Of a stretch of 64,000 bases of DNA, positions 3,780 through 63,726 are shown piece after piece. The stretch lies in sequence record OY720021; one strand, given 5' to 3'. Position 1 is the stretch's first letter, and every line of letters begins with the position of its first letter. The notes beneath the pieces are model-generated. The model was not told the DNA's origin, did no database searches, and saw only the letters and a program-made list of their open reading frames with translations. Made by a program: the position numbers and the translations under genes. This DNA is from Escherichia phage vB_Eco_Solly.

Positions 3780-3868
3780 GTTATCGAGTTGGTGCCATTA
3801 TATACATCATTTTCTGATTGTGTTTTGTGTGCTTTCAAAATGAAGAAAGGGGCCGAAGCCCCTTATGA

Positions 3869-5287
3869 TTATGGATAGGTATAGATGATACCAGTTTCTA
3901 AAGCAGTTTTGTGAATGATGTATCCATTACGCGATTCTTGGACATCAACTTCTGGATAGTCTTTCATCATCTTCTGAAGAGTGTAACGATGCAGGTAGTA
4001 TTTACTATCTGGATCTTCAGTTTTCCAATCTTTACCTTCTTCAGTCATTTTTTGGATTTCATCCATAACCCACCAACCGCACCAGATGTAAGCTGAGCTA
4101 CGGTGTGGAAGAGGATGAACATAAGGTAATTCACCTTCTGGTTCTGGAGCAACTTTATCAGTTACCTGAACTTGACCTTCTGCCGTAATAGTTTTGCTAT
4201 CATAATCAGCAGCAGTAACAGTTGCAGTAACTTCAATAGTTTGACTTCCAATAGATGAGGTATCAACTGTATATACATTAGTTGACCCTTCTACAGGAGA
4301 AGAATCTTTCTTCCATGAATACTCAATTTGCGCTTCTTCTGGAGCATCAGTGACATTAGCAGTAAATGTAGCCGAAGCATCTTGCTGAACGTTAATAGAA
4401 GGAGGAGACAATGTAACCTGTGGATTCATTGTCTTCTTATTAACCGTTAATGATACTTCATTCGAAGTAACTTCCTTTTCATTGTAATTTTCAGCAGTTA
4501 CTTGGGCTACGCATTTAATTCTTTTTACTCCACTTGTAGTTGGAGTATAGTTAAATGTAGAGTTAGTTTCTCCACCAACTTGTGAATCATCTACATACCA
4601 CTGATACGTAGCAGATGCTCCATCAGGTTGAGAAGCTAAGGCAGCAGTAAATTGAACTGGGGTTCCGATTACTCCTGCTGGAGGACTATCAGGAGTTACT
4701 GCCAAGGTAGTTGTCTGCTCCTTTTTATTAACAGTCAGTGATACTTCATTAGAAGTAACGCTTAGTGCATCATAATCTGTCGCAGTTACTTGAGCCACAC
4801 ACTTAATTCTTTTTACCCCGCTTTCGGCAGGAGTGTAATTGAACGTAGCGTTAGTTGCTTCGCCCACAGGAGAATCATCTACATACCATTGATAAGTAGC
4901 GTTTGCGCCCGATGGCTGCGAAGCTAAAGCGGCAGTAAATTCAATAGCTGTTCCGATTACTCCAGCGTCAGGGCTATTAGGAGTTACAGCTAAGGTGGTC
5001 GTTTGTGTCTTATTTTGAACTGTGATAGTTGTAGTAGCTTCTGCTGTTTCAGCATCAGTATCTGGGACTGGGTTTGTTGCAACTACTTTAATAGTCTTTT
5101 GACCGGCAGGTCCTTTTAATACATAATTAAAAGTTGCTTCAGCTCCATCTTGTGGAACATCATCTACAGTCCAAGCATATGTAATAGGTCCATCTCCAGT
5201 TTGACCACTGGGTGTAGCAGTAAACTGCTGAGTCTGATCTATAACTCCAGTAGGTGTTTTAGGAGTTATATCAACTGTAAAAGCCAT
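3869..5287 (-). CDS. hoc: Highly immunogenic outer capsid protein Hoc with four Ig-like domains
   Basis: 472 aa; Ig-like repeats rich in T/V/S with YxW and KCVAQVTA motifs; two near-identical 96-aa tandem units; aromatic C-terminal capsid-binding region. Confidence 0.85.
   Translation of the reverse strand: MAFTVDITPKTPTGVIDQTQQFTATPSGQTGDGPITYAWTVDDVPQDGAEATFNYVLKGPAGQKTIKVVATNPVPDTDAETAEATTTITVQNKTQTTTLAVTPNSPDAGVIGTAIEFTAALASQPSGANATYQWYVDDSPVGEATNATFNYTPAESGVKRIKCVAQVTATDYDALSVTSNEVSLTVNKKEQTTTLAVTPDSPPAGVIGTPVQFTAALASQPDGASATYQWYVDDSQVGGETNSTFNYTPTTSGVKRIKCVAQVTAENYNEKEVTSNEVSLTVNKKTMNPQVTLSPPSINVQQDASATFTANVTDAPEEAQIEYSWKKDSSPVEGSTNVYTVDTSSIGSQTIEVTATVTAADYDSKTITAEGQVQVTDKVAPEPEGELPYVHPLPHRSSAYIWCGWWVMDEIQKMTEEGKDWKTEDPDSKYYLHRYTLQKMMKDYPEVDVQESRNGYIIHKTALETGIIYTYP
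4433..5008 (-). repeat. Tandem direct duplication of a 288-bp Ig-domain unit inside hoc
   Basis: Units about 4433..4720 and 4721..5008 align with mostly synonymous or conservative differences. Confidence 0.8.
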
Positions 5288-16067: not shown

Positions 16068-16097
16068 ATGGGGACCTTTCGGTCCCCATATTTTTAT
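16068..16097 (+). terminator. Intrinsic terminator after gene 54
   Basis: ATGGGGACC-TTTC-GGTCCCCAT followed by ATTTTTATTT. Confidence 0.7.
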
Positions 16098-16384
16098 TTA
16101 CGGAATGAAATAAAAGCAGCAACTGAAGCAACTAAACTGTCTTCAATATAAACCTCAATTTTTACCGGAGCTTCTGACTCAAATTTACCTGTTACTACAC
16201 CTTGGAAAATACTTTCAGTCTGTTCTGGCTTTGAAAAATTTTCAGAAGGAAAAATTCCGAACTTTTTATCTGTTCCAAAAATTTTGATAAATTCATCGTA
16301 AACTGCTTCATTAAAAGCATTATCAGCAGGAATAACGCCTTCAACTACAAGTTCTTGACCCAAAAAGCGCAAAGAAGATTTCAT
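16094..16384 (-). CDS. Hypothetical protein downstream of alt
   Basis: 96 aa; early promoter and SD GAGGAAC upstream. Confidence 0.5.
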   Translation of the reverse strand: MKSSLRFLGQELVVEGVIPADNAFNEAVYDEFIKIFGTDKKFGIFPSENFSKPEQTESIFQGVVTGKFESEAPVKIEVYIEDSLVASVAAFISFRK

Positions 16385-16415
16385 TTTGTGTTCCTCATGT
16401 TATGTCAGTAAGACT

Positions 16416-16445
16416 ACTATAACACAACATGAGGGACTTGTAAAC
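16416..16445 (-). promoter_or_regulatory. Early promoter (GTTTAC -35, 18-nt spacer, TATAGT -10)
   Basis: Minus strand GTTTAC ... TATAGT; same cassette repeated at 31760..31789. Confidence 0.6.
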
Positions 16446-18502
16446 TACATTTTGAACTTTTTAGACATTCCGTTGATGTTAACCAAAGAAGCTAAGATTT
16501 GAGAAACTTCGTTTTCCTCTTCTTTTGATTCTTCTACAAGGAATTGATTAAATCCAGTCATTGGACGAACTTCACCAGTTTCCATCAAATGATCGCCATC
16601 ATATACTGATTCCTCTAATTGTTCAGAAGGAGGAACGATTGTACCTTCGATTAGATACTTGTTATAAGCAGTTTCTTTCATAAAGTAAGTACTTACTTTA
16701 TTAATCTTCAGTAAAATTCCACGTGGTAGAATAACTTCAGCTTCTGATGGAAATCCTGATAAATGACCTGGAACGATAACTTTGATTCGCTCAGCTCCTT
16801 TAATTACCATACCCACGCTAGTTTCAGCATCTTCATTAGCATATGTAGAATGACTACCCATATGCATCAAATCTTCTGCATCAATGGAACCTTCTCCTTC
16901 ACCAGAAAATACTGCGCCAGAATCATCTAGAGCCATATAGTTTTTACCATGCTCACCGAAGATATTTGGTTTAAGCGATGTGGATACGAAGTTCTTGAAA
17001 TAGAACATTTTATTTTCAATGTTATGACGCAAAGTTTTAAAGGTAACTTCTTGCCCACGATAAAGAGTAGTTCCTGGAGGAAGAACTGAACCTTTAGCAA
17101 ATGCAGAATCCAACGTCTCGATGTGTTTAATAGCTCGTTCCATATATTCTTCACGGGTAGAATCAGGTTTACCTAAAAGGAACGAGTTCATTTCAACATA
17201 TGAATCTGCACAATAATCTTCAATTACATCAGACTCAGCCTGAGTTAATCCTTTTGGAGTTACTTCAGTGCTTGCGTATTCATATGCCTGAGCGGCAGAT
17301 TCATTAATCAATTTATAAATGCCATTCATGACAAATTGAATAATAGCTGTCTTTTCATCTGGTGTAGCTTTAGAACCTTTAACTAAATCATTGATAATTT
17401 TCTTAATAACATCAAAGCTATTAGAAATATTAATGTCAGCAAGATCGCTTAAAATTTTATCAGTTTTATAATCAAAGAATTCTTTATTCTTTAAATATTC
17501 TTGAGAACCTTGATATGTTATATCGCTCTGCAACTTGATAGATGGATCACGTAAACGTGCATGGGCTAATGCAATATGATTTCGGAAACTTTCTAGTTCA
17601 TAATCGTTAGATTTAAAACGAGAAGCACTTCTCATACCACCGATAGCTCCTTTGCTAAAGTTTGAACCAATCTGAATAACGCCAGAGTTCATCGGACCTT
17701 CTGCTTTATATACCGGAACTTTAGATTCAAACTCTTGATATTTCTTAGCAGCGAAGCTATCACCCTGAAGTGAAGCATCAACAGTAGAATATTGAGCTTG
17801 TGCTGCTAATCGACGACTAATTTTAGTTTTCTGAATAACAGCTTGATCCGTGCGCTTATCATTTTCTAAAGCAATAGAAGCAGCAACAGCGACAGCTTTA
17901 GGAACAGCATTACCTGTTTTAACGTCTACATAAACATCACCAACCTTTGATTCAACTTTTGTGAATAACTCAGTTGAAATAGGAGGTACACCTGGAATGT
18001 CTTCTAAATTGGCATTTTTACGGTAAACCATAATATATGCATATTTCTTATCATAGTCCCAGATTTCCTTTAAAAGAACATATCGACCTGCTCCTTTAGT
18101 ACGTACTAAACGGTCAGCAATAACTTGCATTTGACGAGCTGCGCCATTTGTTTTACTTTTTAGTACGCGGAATAGGCATGCGTCGATTTTATACTGTTTC
18201 ATTGTTTGAAGAGCAGTATCAAAAACAGCATTAATGACGCCAATTGGATTTCCACCCAAGTTTCTAAGCTTGACTAACGATAATTTCTCATTAACACCTA
18301 TCATTACGATATGCATCATTTTGTCGCCTGGCTTAACGTTTTTATTCGTATCACCGCCAGAGGTGTATGTACAAAATCTAAATCCAGGAAGCACGCTTTC
18401 TTCACCGGCTTGAATAGCAAAAATTTGTGGTATTTTATGCTTAGGATTTAAGTTAACAACCGGCGCCGAAGCGCCGTCAAATAATTCTGTAATAAGTTCC
18501 AT
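16445..18502 (-). CDS. alt: Alt-like mono-ADP-ribosyltransferase, paralog A (packaged head protein)
   Basis: 685 aa; N-terminus MELITELFD; C-terminal ART elements YRGQ, FVSTSL, SEAEVILPRG. Confidence 0.85.
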   Translation of the reverse strand: MELITELFDGASAPVVNLNPKHKIPQIFAIQAGEESVLPGFRFCTYTSGGDTNKNVKPGDKMMHIVMIGVNEKLSLVKLRNLGGNPIGVINAVFDTALQTMKQYKIDACLFRVLKSKTNGAARQMQVIADRLVRTKGAGRYVLLKEIWDYDKKYAYIMVYRKNANLEDIPGVPPISTELFTKVESKVGDVYVDVKTGNAVPKAVAVAASIALENDKRTDQAVIQKTKISRRLAAQAQYSTVDASLQGDSFAAKKYQEFESKVPVYKAEGPMNSGVIQIGSNFSKGAIGGMRSASRFKSNDYELESFRNHIALAHARLRDPSIKLQSDITYQGSQEYLKNKEFFDYKTDKILSDLADINISNSFDVIKKIINDLVKGSKATPDEKTAIIQFVMNGIYKLINESAAQAYEYASTEVTPKGLTQAESDVIEDYCADSYVEMNSFLLGKPDSTREEYMERAIKHIETLDSAFAKGSVLPPGTTLYRGQEVTFKTLRHNIENKMFYFKNFVSTSLKPNIFGEHGKNYMALDDSGAVFSGEGEGSIDAEDLMHMGSHSTYANEDAETSVGMVIKGAERIKVIVPGHLSGFPSEAEVILPRGILLKINKVSTYFMKETAYNKYLIEGTIVPPSEQLEESVYDGDHLMETGEVRPMTGFNQFLVEESKEEENEVSQILASLVNINGMSKKFKM

Positions 18503-18505
18503 GAT

Positions 18506-20599
18506 TTATCCTTGAACGAACTTGTAAGGCATGTTTGTAATATCTATGCAAGACGCAATAATTCCAAGAGATGATTCTACTTTCTGTTTAACGTTTGATG
18601 AAACAAATGATGCAAAGTCAACTCTGTCTTCTATTTCAATATCACCTGTCATTGCAACCAATTCACCAGTTTCCATTAAATGGTCTCCGTCATAGATTAC
18701 CGATTCAGTGAGCTCTTCCGTGGTCATAACTTCAGCTTGAATGAGTTTTGTATTATTAGATGTTGTTCCGTCATTATTAGAAGCATCAGTTATTTTATTA
18801 ACTTTGACCATCAATCCACGTGGTAGAATAACTTCAGCTTCTGTTGCTATTCCGAGACTTCCTGGATATACAACATTAACTTTATGAGCTCCATCAATTG
18901 CCCATCCTATTTGAACTTTAACGTATTCAGGATTTTCTTTATACGCTCTTATTTCGTTTGGATTAATAGTTATTCCTTCTTCATTTTTATCAACTGTTAA
19001 TTCGTTGCGAGCTTCTGGTTCTAAAAGACCAATACCAGCGTGTGTAATTCCAAAACGTCCAAAAATGATAGGAGTTAAAGAAGTAGATACAAAATTTCTA
19101 AAATAGAACACTTTATTTTTAACTAACGCTTCATATATAGGAGCAGTCATACTTTGAGCACGATAAACTGTAATGCCTTCTGGTATACGGTCACCATTTT
19201 CAAAAGCTGAATCTAAGTTATTTATAGCAGATTCAATTTCTTTTTCACTCATTACATCATATCGTTCTGGATTGTAACGACCTAAAAGAAGATTATTGAT
19301 GTCAGTATATCCTGAACCGCAATATTCTCTAATGCCACGCTTTTGTGATGGAGTATATTTAGAACCATCGCGGGCAATAGTAATATCAATCATTGGACCA
19401 GCACCAATTCCAGAAAAACTGTAAATCATTCGTTTGAGGAATTTAGTTTTTGCTGCGTTCCAGGAATTTTTAGTTATTTCTTCCCAGACTTCATCTGGTT
19501 GTCCTTTACGATTTTTATTATGATTAGCAAGCCATTTATCTTTATAATCTTCAAAGAATTGATTTACAGCTGCTGCGTATTTCTCTAAACATTTTATTGA
19601 AGTAGTTGGTTCATTTTTAATTGCATTAAAAATTACTTCTTTAATTTTTTCTGAAACTTCACCGACTTGACTCATTGGAAAGAATTTATAATCATAGTGA
19701 AGTTCATCTGCCGTTCCTTCAGCAATAATTTTTGCTGCCTTTGTTTTAGAAGCTAATGAATTAATTCCAATTTTCATTTCTTCTGCTTCGGGAATTAAAG
19801 GTGCAGTAGCTGGTTTATTAAAATTAGCTGCTGTAGATTCATACTTCTGGAATAATTCACTTTCAAATCTAGAAGATTCCAATGACTGACTTTGTGCAAT
19901 TGCTCTACGGGAAATTTTAACTTTAACGATTACGGCTTGGTCAGAACGTTTATCATTTTCTTGTGCAATTGATGCTGCAATTGCCTCATTTTTAGTTACT
20001 TGGGCTCCAGTATCTTTATTGATATAAACATCACCGACTTTCGATTCAACTTTAGTAAAGAGCTCGGTACTAATTTCCGGAACTCCTGGAATGTCTTCTA
20101 GTGATACATTTTTGCGATGTATAAGAATATATGCATACTTTTTATCGTAATCCCAGAGTTCCTTAAGAAGGACGTATCTACCACCTGAACGACTACGGAT
20201 AAGTCTATCAGCAATAACTTGAATTTGTCGAGCTTGACCGGCGGTTTTAGACTTAAGAATACGAAGCATACAAGCATCAATTTTATATTGACGCATTGTT
20301 TGCATTGCAACAGTAAAAACTGAATTGATATAATTAATTGGGCTTGGACCAAGACCTTTTAATTTAGCAATTGAACCTTTAGCAGTTAATGTAAAAGGAA
20401 CAATATGCATCATTTTATCGCCCATCTTTAAATCGCGATTAGTATCACCTCCAGATGTATAGGTACATAAACGAAAGCCTGGTTGTTCAATTGCATCATC
20501 AACATGAACTGAAAAAATTTGTGGTATTTTCTTCTTTGGATTTAAGTTTGTAATCGGAAGAGTAGTATCTTCGTCAAATAATTCTGTAATGAGTTCCAT
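18506..20599 (-). CDS. Alt-like mono-ADP-ribosyltransferase, paralog B
   Basis: About 697 aa from second ATG; N-terminal 200 aa near-identical to paralog A; C-terminal VYRAQ, FVSTSL, TEAEVILPRG; late promoter 20623..20630. Confidence 0.85.
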   Translation of the reverse strand: MELITELFDEDTTLPITNLNPKKKIPQIFSVHVDDAIEQPGFRLCTYTSGGDTNRDLKMGDKMMHIVPFTLTAKGSIAKLKGLGPSPINYINSVFTVAMQTMRQYKIDACMLRILKSKTAGQARQIQVIADRLIRSRSGGRYVLLKELWDYDKKYAYILIHRKNVSLEDIPGVPEISTELFTKVESKVGDVYINKDTGAQVTKNEAIAASIAQENDKRSDQAVIVKVKISRRAIAQSQSLESSRFESELFQKYESTAANFNKPATAPLIPEAEEMKIGINSLASKTKAAKIIAEGTADELHYDYKFFPMSQVGEVSEKIKEVIFNAIKNEPTTSIKCLEKYAAAVNQFFEDYKDKWLANHNKNRKGQPDEVWEEITKNSWNAAKTKFLKRMIYSFSGIGAGPMIDITIARDGSKYTPSQKRGIREYCGSGYTDINNLLLGRYNPERYDVMSEKEIESAINNLDSAFENGDRIPEGITVYRAQSMTAPIYEALVKNKVFYFRNFVSTSLTPIIFGRFGITHAGIGLLEPEARNELTVDKNEEGITINPNEIRAYKENPEYVKVQIGWAIDGAHKVNVVYPGSLGIATEAEVILPRGLMVKVNKITDASNNDGTTSNNTKLIQAEVMTTEELTESVIYDGDHLMETGELVAMTGDIEIEDRVDFASFVSSNVKQKVESSLGIIASCIDITNMPYKFVQG

Positions 20600-20622
20600 C
20601 ATATCCTCTCTAGTGTTTATTC

Positions 20623-24537: not shown

Positions 24538-24578
24538 AGTATTTTCCTCAGTAAGGGGCCGAAGCCCCTTATTTTATT

Positions 24579-24944
24579 TTAAATATCAAATTCGTTAAGA
24601 ACTACATCAAAGATTGCTTCAAGATGCTCAGGTTTAGCTCTGTTACTCAGAATATGACGAATCCAAGTTTTAACCAGAAGCTTACGATTAACGCCATTCC
24701 AGCAAGGATGAGTCCCTAAATCACGTTGACGGAAATCATCATCCAAAGCGATTTTAAAAGAAGAACCTTCTTTCGTGATTGAAACCGTAATGCCATTTTC
24801 AAATCGCATATAAACGTAGTTAGGAGTCATATACTGTTCAATTTCGCATACTGATCCATTTTGATGTTTCCAAAGGCAAATAGTATCAATAGAACCTGCA
24901 ATACCGTTAGAAACATATTTACGTTCAAAGTTGATGTAGTTCAT
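24579..24944 (-). CDS. Hypothetical protein
   Basis: 121 aa ORF; early promoter-like element at 24950..25010. Confidence 0.5.
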   Translation of the reverse strand: MNYINFERKYVSNGIAGSIDTICLWKHQNGSVCEIEQYMTPNYVYMRFENGITVSITKEGSSFKIALDDDFRQRDLGTHPCWNGVNRKLLVKTWIRHILSNRAKPEHLEAIFDVVLNEFDI

Positions 24945-30884: not shown

Positions 30885-31234
30885 TTAGAAAGGTCCTGGA
30901 TGTCTTCTGCGAACTTGTTGAAGGAGTTATTGATTTGTTTTTCAACCAATCCTGGCTTATGAGCCACCACATCCGCCTTCTTTGCGTCTTTGCGCAGTTT
31001 TTCATTTTCACGCTCAATAGCAGCAATTGCCTCACGATTTTTAGTATTCATCGCATCAATATAATTATACTGAATTCGCAAATTATTTAATGCTAAGGCG
31101 TTTTCATTGGCTGTTTTTGTAATTTCAGTAACTGATGTTTCTAATCTTTCTACCTTATTTTTTAAAATAATAGATGTTCCGCCAAATGCTATTACAAGTA
31201 ATAGCAATCCAGCTGTTGTATTACTTAATTGCAT
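30881..31234 (-). CDS. Inner-membrane i-spanin (Rz-like)
   Basis: 117 aa; N-terminal transmembrane helix then charged coiled-coil; directly upstream of lipoprotein ORF. Confidence 0.7.
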   Translation of the reverse strand: MQLSNTTAGLLLLVIAFGGTSIILKNKVERLETSVTEITKTANENALALNNLRIQYNYIDAMNTKNREAIAAIERENEKLRKDAKKADVVAHKPGLVEKQINNSFNKFAEDIQDLSK

Positions 31235-31731
31235 AAAGTTTTAATAACCTCTATAATATCGTCTTGAGAAAGACCGTTAATTAAAATATGATGTTCAGCT
31301 GGAGATTTAGAAATTTTAAAGCATGCCTCAACATCTTCTGCCATATCCGATGCACTACGATTTGGATTACTAATTCCAAGACGATGTTTTCCCGTTAAAG
31401 GATTAACGATGATATAGCATTTGCAGCTATTGATATGAACATTAGGTTGAGTCTGATTAATGAACACTTCACAATCATACTTAGCGAGTTGATTTTCTAA
31501 AAAGACTTTCATCTCTTCAACCGCATCAGGAAGCATATCACGGGCTTGCTCAAGACGACGATTTCGATATTCTTTAATGGTCGTTTTCCGCTTGACTTGC
31601 TTAGCTAAATCTTTCTTAAGATCGGTGATATATCCAACTCGACGATTTCCTTTGAATACAGAAATCCCATCTGTAGTATCACCGTATGCTTCAACGACCA
31701 TTTCAGTAGTAATAAGCTGCAAATCCATCAT
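31225..31731 (-). CDS. alc: Alc-like protein (inhibitor of transcription on cytosine-containing DNA)
   Basis: 168 aa at the T4 alc position; early promoter 31760..31789 directly upstream. Confidence 0.7.
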   Translation of the reverse strand: MMDLQLITTEMVVEAYGDTTDGISVFKGNRRVGYITDLKKDLAKQVKRKTTIKEYRNRRLEQARDMLPDAVEEMKVFLENQLAKYDCEVFINQTQPNVHINSCKCYIIVNPLTGKHRLGISNPNRSASDMAEDVEACFKISKSPAEHHILINGLSQDDIIEVIKTLCN

Positions 31732-31759
31732 AAAGTCCTCATGTTATGTCAGTAAGACT

Positions 31760-31789
31760 ACTATAACACAACACGAGGGACTTGTAAAC
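31760..31789 (-). promoter_or_regulatory. Early promoter upstream of alc
   Basis: Near-identical copy of the 16416..16445 promoter and leader. Confidence 0.6.
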
Positions 31790-31792
31790 AGC

Positions 31793-33380
<1,588 letters not shown>

Positions 33381-40501: not shown

Positions 40502-40520
40502 CAGTATTGCCGATAATTGT

Positions 40521-40582
40521 ATAGTACCACAGTATGCTTTGGTTGTAAACCGTTTTGTGAAAAAATTTTTGAAATAAAAAAG
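40521..40582 (-). promoter_or_regulatory. Early promoter with A/T-rich UP element
   Basis: Minus strand GTTTAC, 18-nt spacer, TACTAT; A/T tract upstream; identical copy at 57846..57908. Confidence 0.6.
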
Positions 40583-57804: not shown

Positions 57805-57845
57805 TTTCTAATCTCCGTAATTCTGTATCAGTAGTTGATAGTTGT

Positions 57846-57908
57846 ATAGTACCACAGTATGCTTTGGTTGTAAACCGTTTTGTGAAAAAATTTTTGAAAT
57901 AAAAAAAA
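57846..57908 (-). promoter_or_regulatory. Early promoter with A/T-rich UP element upstream of motA
   Basis: About 66 bp identical to 40517..40582. Confidence 0.6.
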
Positions 57909-62526: not shown

Positions 62527-62564
62527 AATTTTTCCTTAAAACAAAAGGGCCGAAGCCCTTTATT

Positions 62565-62759
62565 TTACTTGAATTGTGCAATTCTTTTCTCTAGACATTC
62601 AGCATAAGATTTCATTGAGATGAACTGTGAAAGCAGCAGTTCTTGCTCAACTGCACTAACCGTTAGAAACTTTGTGCTTTCTAAAAATTTGCTCAGTGCA
62701 TTAATTTTGAGCATTAATTGATCGTATTCTTCTTTTACTCGTGCTTGATAACCTAACAT
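62565..62759 (-). CDS. Hypothetical small protein
   Basis: 64 aa ORF flanked by GC hairpins. Confidence 0.45.
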   Translation of the reverse strand: MLGYQARVKEEYDQLMLKINALSKFLESTKFLTVSAVEQELLLSQFISMKSYAECLEKRIAQFK

Positions 62760-62787
62760 AATTTTCCTTAGTTAAGGGCCGAAGCCC

Positions 62788-63726
62788 TTATTTAAATTGC
62801 TCAGTAACGTCTTCAACTACTTCGTATTGGCAAGTACGCATTTTAGCATCGTTGTAATCAATCGGAATTGATACTACATCACGCGGATGTACTTTAACTT
62901 TTACAACTCGGCTAGTTGAACTACCAAAGTGACGAATATAAGATTTAGAACACACATGCAGACCACGAGAACAAGTTTGTGTATCATCGTCGTTCACACG
63001 AGTACGTGGCATTTTAACTACTTTACCAGGACTGTTATCAAAGGTATTTGAGTGACAATCAAAGTAATTGCTACGAACTACTTTCCAAGCATAGAAGTAA
63101 CCATCTTCTGTAATTTCAATATCGTTTGCTACCAAGAAATCAAAGAGTCGAGATACCGCTTTTTGGCTTGGGTTTTCCAGCAGATTTTCCAAGAACGGAA
63201 AATAAAATTCAAAGTTTTCACCTTTTTCCATCGAATCGAGAATACGATCAACTAAACCAGACCGTAATTCGATATTTTGATAGAACAAGCTTCCGCCTTC
63301 AATTCGAACATCGCCGGAAATATATTTTTCAACAGCGCGACGAACATTAATTTTTTGTGCAGCTTCTTCCAGCTTATCCGCTACAAGCAGATTAAGAATT
63401 TCCTGGAAGTTTGAATGAGTATTAGGTGTTGCGTTATAAGTTACACCGTCGACAGTAATTGAAATGAATTTTTTAGATGCATTCCAAATAATGTCAGATT
63501 TAGCAACTGGAGCAATAACTGCATCGCTATTAACTTTAACTGTAATATCACCGCTAATAGTAACTTTAGAGCGTTTAGCTTCTTCAGCATTTTTCAAAAC
63601 ACGACGGATTGTGTCAACCGATACATCCTTCCAATAAGCCAATTCCTGTTGGGTGTAATTACCGCTTGAATACAGTTTAACAATTTCAGCTTGTTCGTTT
63701 TTGGTCAGGCATTTAATATTGTACAT
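62788..63726 (-). CDS. rIIB: rIIB protein
   Basis: 312 aa, the T4 rIIB length; adjacent to rIIA. Confidence 0.85.
   Translation of the reverse strand: MYNIKCLTKNEQAEIVKLYSSGNYTQQELAYWKDVSVDTIRRVLKNAEEAKRSKVTISGDITVKVNSDAVIAPVAKSDIIWNASKKFISITVDGVTYNATPNTHSNFQEILNLLVADKLEEAAQKINVRRAVEKYISGDVRIEGGSLFYQNIELRSGLVDRILDSMEKGENFEFYFPFLENLLENPSQKAVSRLFDFLVANDIEITEDGYFYAWKVVRSNYFDCHSNTFDNSPGKVVKMPRTRVNDDDTQTCSRGLHVCSKSYIRHFGSSTSRVVKVKVHPRDVVSIPIDYNDAKMRTCQYEVVEDVTEQFK

Follow-up and report, generated by a model that had tools for sequence, protein, structure and literature searches.

The early promoters (Pe) of bacteriophage T4 combine a GTTTAC −35 element, a TGn motif, a TAnnnT −10 element, A/T-rich upstream DNA, and an A at position +1. 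They are reportedly catalogued in the work of Liebig and Rueger from 1989, Wilkens and Rueger from 1994, and Miller and colleagues from 2003.

Two kinds of element described in T4-like phages are relevant here. The promoter-early stem-loop (PeSL) cassettes (Arbiol et al. 2010, PMC2839356; Comeau et al. 2014, PMC4122927) pack a strong sigma-70-type early promoter, a stem-loop, a Shine-Dalgarno sequence (SD), and a start codon between two genes. Five positions of the stem-loop have been distinguished: in the upstream A/T region, over the −35 element, between the −35 and −10 elements, over the −10 element, and just before the start site (PMC2839356). Relative to the promoter, the stem-loop of the published PeSL subclasses lies upstream, inside, or immediately downstream, and pairing with the SD has not been described for any of them. 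The role proposed for PeSLs is termination and the shuffling of ORFans in hyperplastic regions.

The second kind of element is the SD-sequestering hairpin of the T4 genes e, soc, 49, and I-TevI (reviewed in PMC3014915). Long RNA begun upstream of these genes folds the SD and/or the AUG into a helix, and an internal promoter gives rise to a shorter, translatable RNA that lacks the 5′ arm. The internal promoters are late promoters (TATAAATA), and translation is delayed to late infection.

Here we describe a cassette that occurs twice in a 64,000-nucleotide stretch of DNA from Escherichia phage vB_Eco_Solly (sequence record OY720021; hereafter, the window). It has in common with T4 Pe the GTTTAC, the TGn motif, and the TAnnnT −10 element, with a predicted A at +1, and it is closest to the PeSLs and to the hairpins of e, soc, 49, and I-TevI, yet distinct from both. 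As in PeSLs, the parts are packed between two genes, and copies are repeated within one genome and apparently exchanged between loci. The loop of the hairpin holds the −10 element, so that the stem-loop could arguably be counted as overlapping the −10 element, one of the five PeSL positions, but its 3′ arm spans +5 to +17 and takes in the SD; moreover, the cassette has no terminator signature, and its loci lie in conserved gene orders. As with e, soc, 49, and I-TevI, long RNA begun upstream is predicted to fold the SD into a helix, and the geometry implies that the internal promoter yields a shorter RNA without the 5′ arm. In contrast to those genes, the cassette has an early sigma-70 promoter inside the hairpin, which would confine translation to the immediate-early period; the late-promoter motif TATAAATA is absent from both copies. 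The effect of the hairpin has been demonstrated experimentally for e and I-TevI (PMC3014915), whereas that of the cassette is predicted.

The repeated promoter and leader block

The window is Tequatrovirus DNA, with 97%–99.7% identity to hundreds of T4-like genomes. The original prediction was that a module of about 55 bp recurs at two sites, and alignment of these sites delimited a block of 54 nt in which 53 positions are identical, at 16392–16445 (copy A) and 31736–31789 (copy B). The genes lie on the minus strand, on which the block reads GTTTACAAGTCCCTCRTGTTGTGTTATAGTAGTCTTACTGACATAACATGAGGA. The sole mismatch is an A in copy A (16430) and a G in copy B (31774). The two loci and their promoter parts are as follows:

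16392..16445, minus strand: copy A of the cassette (54 nt), flanked by the stop codon of the alt-like gene and by the 96-aa alt.-3 homologue
16094..16384, minus strand: 96-aa ORF that copy A serves, homologous to alt.-3 of T4 (Pfam DUF5498)
16445..18502, minus strand: alt-like ADP-ribosyltransferase gene, 685 aa, upstream of copy A
16068..16089, no single strand: bidirectional terminator-like hairpin after the 96-aa ORF
16439..16444, minus strand: −35 element TTTACA of copy A
16416..16424, minus strand: extended −10 element of copy A, TGT plus TATAGT
16409, minus strand: predicted transcription start of copy A, an A 7 nt past the −10 element, placed by geometry
31736..31789, minus strand: copy B of the cassette (54 nt), flanked by the stop codon of rnlA (31793–31795) and by alc
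31225..31731, minus strand: alc, the gene that copy B serves (Pfam ALC; PHROG "inhibitor of host transcription")
31793..32917, minus strand: rnlA (T4 RNA ligase 1), source of read-through transcripts into copy B
31783..31788, minus strand: −35 element TTTACA of copy B
31760..31768, minus strand: extended −10 element of copy B, TGT plus TATAGT
31753, minus strand: predicted transcription start of copy B, an A 7 nt past the −10 element, placed by geometry

Identity begins at the G of GTTTAC, which in copy A (G 16445) also ends the upstream stop codon TAG (16445–16447), and it runs to the SD GAGGA, which is 7 nt from the ATG in copy A and 4 nt from it in copy B. All of the elements that had been named for the module were found: GTTTAC, TATAGT 18 nt beyond GTTTAC, and AACATGAGGA. 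The 18-nt spacing, which is counted from GTTTAC, is the same geometry as TTTACA-17-TATAGT with an extended −10 TGn. The ranges given for the module contained the block but were slightly too wide, in that 16386–16391 (6 nt) and 31732–31735 (4 nt) lie outside the identity; the leader tails beyond the block differ (ACACAAA in copy A, CTTT in copy B). The downstream genes had been assigned correctly, as a 96-aa ORF that follows alt and as alc, with domain matches to DUF5498 and ALC, respectively.

The identity is not confined to the two hexamers and, as predicted, continues past the promoter into the leader. A search of the window that allowed up to three mismatches returned just the two copies, and no extra copy of either half of the block occurs elsewhere in the window. 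As the identity spans the spacer, the −10 element, the initially transcribed region, and the leader, the comparison supports the view, already put forward in the original prediction, that the two copies are a duplicated module and did not arise by convergence on hexamers. It is scarcely credible that they are two independent strong promoters that merely look alike. An extended consensus is indeed common to all T4-type early promoters (PMC2988021), but the other ten early-promoter cassettes of the window have only the hexamers and this loose consensus in common, and the 53/54 identity covers spacer and leader sites that vary freely among those ten; there were no matches in 100 dinucleotide shuffles, and the alignment by itself refutes convergence.

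Both copies consist of TTTACA, a 17-nt spacer, TGT, and TATAGT, which match the sigma-70 consensus at 10 of 12 positions with an extended −10 element, and both show the GTTTAC(A/T), ~17-nt spacer, TGn, and TAnnnT of T4-type early promoters. The 60 nt upstream of the −35 element are 70%–75% A+T, compared with 64% for the window; this is coding DNA, and it differs between the copies. The positions in T4 (AF158101) that are equivalent to the predicted start sites are 136300 (alc, corresponding to 31753) and 123057 (alt.-3, corresponding to 16409), and in phage fPS-65 the corresponding position had been independently annotated as a predicted early promoter. In a T4 time-course omics study (PMC9697503), alt.-3 and alc were classed as early for both RNA and protein. 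The T4 genes just upstream were classed as middle (alt.-1/alt.-2), late (alt), or early RNA and late protein (rnlA) (PMC9697503). The switch in expression class thus coincides exactly with the cassettes, which is the pattern that an active early promoter would give.

Both copies are present in T4 itself, one before alt.-3 and one before alc, and approximately 500 Tequatrovirus records have exactly two cassette sites each. Each cassette fills a gap of ~60 nt between two genes on the same strand. A terminator scan of the window found no terminator-like site between the upstream genes (alt-like and rnlA) and the cassettes. The hairpin at 16068–16089 is the first terminator-like site open to transcripts of the alt region, and because there is no terminator before 16089, transcripts of the alt-like gene must cross copy A.

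The alt-like gene is one of two tandem, full-length alt-type ADP-ribosyltransferase genes on the minus strand (16445–18502, 685 aa, and 18506–20602, 698 aa), which have ~72%–80% nucleotide identity (repeat families D3, D8, D12, and D17). T4 has a single alt, with the remnants alt.-1/alt.-2 in place of a second copy, and the annotated alt.-2 CDS of T4 extends into the promoter cassette. At the other locus, the mechanically called rnlA ORF (31793–32953) begins at a GTG that is 12 codons 5′ of the likely ATG, and the 374-aa version of the protein gives an end-to-end match to both T4 Rnl1 Pfam domains.

The window contains other repeats. Near-identical terminator-like hairpins (GGGGCCGAAGCCCC followed by a T-run) are found at 3847–3890, 24541–24596, 62532–62587, and 62761–62798 (families D6/D7), and 4433–5008 consists of two tandem 288-nt units with 74% identity (repeat family D1), which presumably reflect a duplication inside a structural gene. 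A second early-promoter pair (40512–40581 and 57837–57906) is 99% identical over 70 nt, which span the A/T-rich upstream region, the −35 element, the spacer, the −10 element, and the sequence to ~+8 but not the leader. Its two copies precede ORFs of 75 aa and 211 aa, the latter matching MotA in size, and it is probably the "first" repeated module that had been reported alongside the one analyzed here.

Predicted pairing of the promoter spacer with the Shine-Dalgarno sequence

The cassette is an inverted repeat, which the original prediction had not included: the promoter spacer CCTCRTGTTGTGT pairs with the leader and SD ACATAACATGAGG. The 13 spacer nucleotides right after the −35 element are complementary to the 13 leader nucleotides that end in the SD, and the −10 element and the predicted start site sit inside the hairpin loop. 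The arms are located as follows:

16422..16434, minus strand: 5′ arm of copy A, CCTCATGTTGTGT, in the promoter spacer and present only in RNA begun upstream
16393..16405, minus strand: 3′ arm of copy A, ACATAACATGAGG, with the SD GAGG at 16393–16396
31766..31778, minus strand: 5′ arm of copy B, CCTCGTGTTGTGT
31737..31749, minus strand: 3′ arm of copy B, ACATAACATGAGG, with the SD GAGG at 31737–31740

The 5′ arm contains the segment GTGTTGTGT and the 3′ arm the segment ACATAACAT. The single A/G mismatch between the copies gives an A-U pair in copy A and a G.U pair in copy B (31774), so that both retain pairing. Read-through RNA is predicted to fold with energies of −23.7 kcal/mol (copy A) and −27.3 kcal/mol (copy B), at z scores of −4.4 and −3.9, respectively, and RNA from the predicted start site is predicted to be unstructured. 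In partition-function calculations, the cost of opening the SD was 11.2 kcal/mol (alt.-3) and 7.0 kcal/mol (alc) in read-through RNA and 1.0 kcal/mol (alt.-3) and 1.3 kcal/mol (alc) in the cassette's own transcript.

These thermodynamic predictions, together with the comparative pattern described below, lead us to infer translational gating: we propose, with moderate confidence, that the element is a duplicated early-promoter cassette with a hairpin that leaves the SD usable solely on promoter-proximal transcripts. In each copy, GTTTAC(A) and a 17-nt spacer are followed by TGn-TATAGT, an A predicted to be +1, a leader of ~25 nt that is predicted to be unstructured, GAGGA, and the ATG. RNA from its own promoter would lack the 5′ arm and leave the SD open. 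RNA begun upstream, such as rnlA transcripts that run into alc or middle and late transcripts of the alt region that run into the alt.-3 homologue, would contain both arms and bury the SD in a stem of at least 13 bp. Alc and the 96-aa protein would then likely be made mainly from the immediate-early, promoter-proximal transcript, and they would be poorly made from the long read-through transcripts that persist past early-promoter shut-off.

Two other assignments of the stem were considered. An intrinsic terminator was rejected, as there is no U-run (the stems are followed by ACUUUAUGAUG and ACACAAAAUG) and the terminator scan was silent at both sites. An RNase III substrate was set aside, the stems in other genera being just 9–15 bp long. 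The covariance models of Rfam 15 gave sub-threshold chance matches around copy A and none around copy B.

The Tequatrovirus stems contain two to three G.U pairs, each of which is an A.C mismatch on the opposite strand, and the Tequatrovirus alc cassette folds at −24.4 kcal/mol in the sense direction versus −15.4 kcal/mol in the antisense direction. Stronger sense folds are as expected for a structure at the RNA level, in Tequatrovirus only; the stems of other genera are mostly pure Watson-Crick, and the G.U/A.C strand asymmetry is uninformative there. Among the Tequatrovirus loci sampled, no change is seen in the 3′ arm, alc and alt.-3 are each polymorphic at the A/G position, and most natural changes in the 5′ arm preserve pairing through G.U; one alt.-3 lineage carries two C-to-T changes that do so. 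Two alt.-3 variants (L096 and REP4) have a pair-breaking change.

The same data bear on whether the inverted repeat might act in DNA, either as a cruciform or hairpin in promoter opening or shut-off or as the site of a structure-specific protein. It would suit such an element that the −10 always lies inside the loop, that most stems outside Tequatrovirus are perfect Watson-Crick helices with antisense folds about equally stable, and that the mechanism of early-promoter shut-off has been described as not understood (PMC3014915). We nevertheless regard a DNA-level function as very unlikely, because the Tequatrovirus stems contain G.U pairs and fold so much less stably in the antisense direction, and because the natural 5′-arm variants are mostly transitions that preserve G.U pairing. 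A sequence-specific binding protein is also unlikely, since the stem sequences vary between promoters.

The window contains 12 GTTTAC/TGn/−10 cassettes with a downstream SD and ORF, all on the minus strand, and eight of them have an inverted repeat that flanks the −10 element. These eight fall into two groups, in which the numbers give the window positions of the −35 elements:

Minus strand, 3′ arm includes the SD: cassettes 61183 (a 14-bp helix with two G.U pairs, upstream of a 37-aa ORF), alc, alt.-3, and 25401
Minus strand, 3′ arm at ~+2 to +10, SD free: cassettes 28463, 25009, 39839, and 43850

Among the window cassettes, cognate pairing exceeds noncognate pairing (p = 1e-5). The predicted folds suggest that read-through-only hairpins are common in these cassettes and that masking of the SD is one variant. 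The −10-flanking hairpins of four other cassettes miss the SD, and some broader role of read-through-specific hairpins, such as attenuation or RNA stability, may be primary.

Comparison across genera and between loci

For comparison at alc, upstream regions from genera across the Straboviridae were taken from the GenBank phage collection. Protein-anchored scans of IMG/VR (alc and alt.-3) gave five to six near-identical loci, and GenBank was therefore used for the cross-genus sampling; a scan of IMG/VR with a 15-mer gave 87 stretches, of which the majority seem to be unrelated and only ~10 contain the full cassette.

Eight further genera share the alc architecture: Gelderlandvirus, Jiaodavirus, Dhakavirus, Karamvirus, Bragavirus, Winklervirus, Roskildevirus, and Moonvirus. 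In all eight, the gap between rnlA and alc is ~60 nt, GTTTACA is followed directly by the 5′ arm, the loop consists of TGn and the −10 element, and the 3′ arm ends on the SD, which lies 3–7 nt before the ATG of alc. The helices are uninterrupted, measure 9–15 bp, and extend from cassette position 7–12 to the SD; their inner sequences vary between genera, as in these examples:

Gelderlandvirus: 5′ arm TCTCCGTTTAGTT, 3′ arm AACTAAACGGAGA
Jiaodavirus: 5′ arm TCCTCATCAG, 3′ arm CTGATGAGGA
Winklervirus: 5′ arm TCCTCATTTCGTTG, 3′ arm TAACGAAATGAGGA
Bragavirus: 5′ arm AACCTCTCATTTTTA, 3′ arm TGAAAATGAGAGGTT

When spacers and leaders were swapped among the nine genera, cognate combinations paired at −15 to −23 kcal/mol, compared with a mean of −9.7 kcal/mol for noncognate combinations (permutation p < 1e-5, for nine genera that are of common ancestry and are not nine independent trials). 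The cognate pair ranked first in its row and column for all nine, save for the near-identical Karamvirus/Moonvirus pair, and shuffled spacers gave P ≤ 0.016 for each genus. For the alc cassettes aligned with MAFFT, RNAalifold predicted no pairs, since such alignments leave the 3′ arms out of register. The predicted cost of opening the SD in read-through RNA is 7–12 kcal/mol in Tequatrovirus and nine other genera, and in the cassettes' own transcripts it is 0.5–2.5 kcal/mol across genera. The pairing between spacer and SD is the feature most likely to be under selection.

Other arrangements were also found. In Gualtarvirus, the SD and AUG are masked by another hairpin, whose 5′ arm begins in the −10 element, and Acinetobacter, Aeromonas, and Cronobacter phages have different arrangements upstream of alc. 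The order of rnlA, a ~60-nt gap, and alc is kept in 9 of the 11 genera that have a GTTTAC-type cassette. Gaprivervirus VR25 has an additional ORF between rnlA and alc (L102 90–400), which encodes 77 aa and resembles a partial tandem duplicate of the Alc N terminus; before it lies a terminator-like hairpin, AAGGGGTGTACAAGCCCCTT, with a −35-like TGTACA in the loop, which amounts to a PeSL with its stem-loop over the −35 element.

In Mosigvirus, the pairing at alc has been lost. The Mosigvirus alc leader is still a perfect complement of the Tequatrovirus 5′ arm (−20.6 kcal/mol), and the sequence comparison suggests that the promoter half of the cassette was replaced. The loss at Mosigvirus alc and the pair-breaking change in L096 and REP4 indicate that the structure is dispensable in some lineages. 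In one Mosigvirus, Shf125875, the region upstream of alc (L101 344–406) retains the old leader and has a spacer of the generic CACCAAGGATGGTG type; in the record, the alc CDS has been given an N-terminal extension, which overlaps the promoter.

The alt.-3 locus differs from alc in its distribution. The order alt, alt.-3, gene 54 is conserved in all six loci that were fetched (five genera), and Gaprivervirus, Dhakavirus, Mosigvirus, Marfavirus, and Karamvirus all have an early promoter in the same gap between alt and alt.-3. The alt.-3 promoter of these five genera is a different, generic early promoter, the spacer of which forms just a small internal hairpin (CCACAAGGATGTGG type), and its SD is predicted to be weakly masked or open (1–5 kcal/mol). 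The SD-masking architecture is thus old at alc, and at alt.-3 it is seen only in Tequatrovirus, which has an almost exact copy of the alc cassette there. Because the architecture is present in nine genera at alc and a generic promoter is present at alt.-3 elsewhere, the alc cassette probably came first, and the alt.-3 copy is probably a replacement or conversion from it. The simplest history that we envisage is that in the Tequatrovirus stem lineage the alc cassette overwrote an ordinary alt.-3 promoter by recombination or gene conversion, and that the junctions would have lain in sequences common to both cassettes, GTTTACA on the left and ATGAGGA on the right.

Exchange of half cassettes seems to have taken place at other loci too. 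The ndd.1 cassette of Mosigvirus JS09 (L002 1487–1543) has a 3′ half, TATAGTAGTCCTACTGAAACATGAGGAACACAAAATG, that is shared with the T4-type alt.-3 cassette at 86% identity, native tail included. Its spacer pairs with another leader segment (GGTAGGA/TCCTACT).

Alternative readings and significance

One alternative is a PeSL-like function. In such a reading, the stem-loop attenuates or terminates upstream transcription, the cassette is mainly a portable recombination site, and its pairing with the SD is incidental. The PeSLs of RB49 and phi1 do have stem-loops between the −35 and −10 elements or over the −10 element, and one such stem-loop cut expression of a downstream lacZ like a strong terminator (PMC2839356). 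The −10-flanking inverted repeats in 8 of the 12 window cassettes, four of which stop short of the SD, would fit the same function, as would the apparent half exchanges, with the 5′ half replaced at Mosigvirus alc and the 3′ half shared by JS09 ndd.1. We consider this reading unlikely, however. The stem has no U-tract and went undetected as a terminator at both sites, and at alc the helix ends on the SD in 9 of 9 genera. Furthermore, both loci lie in gene orders that are conserved across most of the genera sampled and not in hyperplastic ORFan regions, and the copies, 15.3 kb apart, flank the essential genes 30 and 31, so that excision between them would be lethal.

The position of the upstream stop codon, just 10–15 nt before the stem, raises another point about translational gating: terminating ribosomes may partly open the stem, and the outcome may be translational coupling rather than silencing. 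In a strict form of coupling, the SD would stay closed until the base of the stem was melted by a ribosome at the end of rnlA or of the alt-like gene, and the downstream gene would be translated in step with the upstream one. We judge this to be quite improbable. The stop codon overlaps GTTTAC or lies 0–5 nt before it in all genera, and it is the outermost pairs of the stem that hold the SD, which would suit coupling; but a ribosome at the stop codon would reach only ~0–3 bp of the 9–15 bp helix, as estimated from ribosome footprints, and the T4 protein classes differ across both junctions (RnlA late and Alc early, Alt late and Alt.-3 early), unlike what is expected of tight coupling.

We favor the reading in which the hairpin confines use of the SD to promoter-proximal transcripts. 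The literature searched, which took in only some of the older T4 papers and none of the classical promoter catalogues, yielded no description of a hairpin that joins an early promoter to the SD. The cassette belongs to a broad class of elements already known in the most intensively studied phage, to which it adds a conserved, covarying pairing between spacer and SD.

It is possible, although we advance the idea only tentatively, that placing an early promoter within a hairpin formed only in read-through RNA is a general design rule of T4-like phages. To our knowledge, such a rule has not been described for early promoters. If it holds, then wherever the 3′ arm is the SD, immediate-early cistrons would be insulated from translation on long middle-mode and late transcripts, and this would contribute to the poorly explained rapid drop in early-protein synthesis after early-promoter shut-off.

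The history of the two loci would be that of a regulatory cassette copied from one locus to another, from alc to alt.-3 in Tequatrovirus, with a half replacement of the reverse type at Mosigvirus alc. If the gating is real, a single cistron would have two fates, translated or silent, set by the origin of transcription alone and without a protein factor. The mechanism of four late-expressed T4 genes would then extend to immediate-early genes, including alc, and PeSL-type cassettes, which so far have been treated as promoter-terminator and recombination modules, would gain a translational function.
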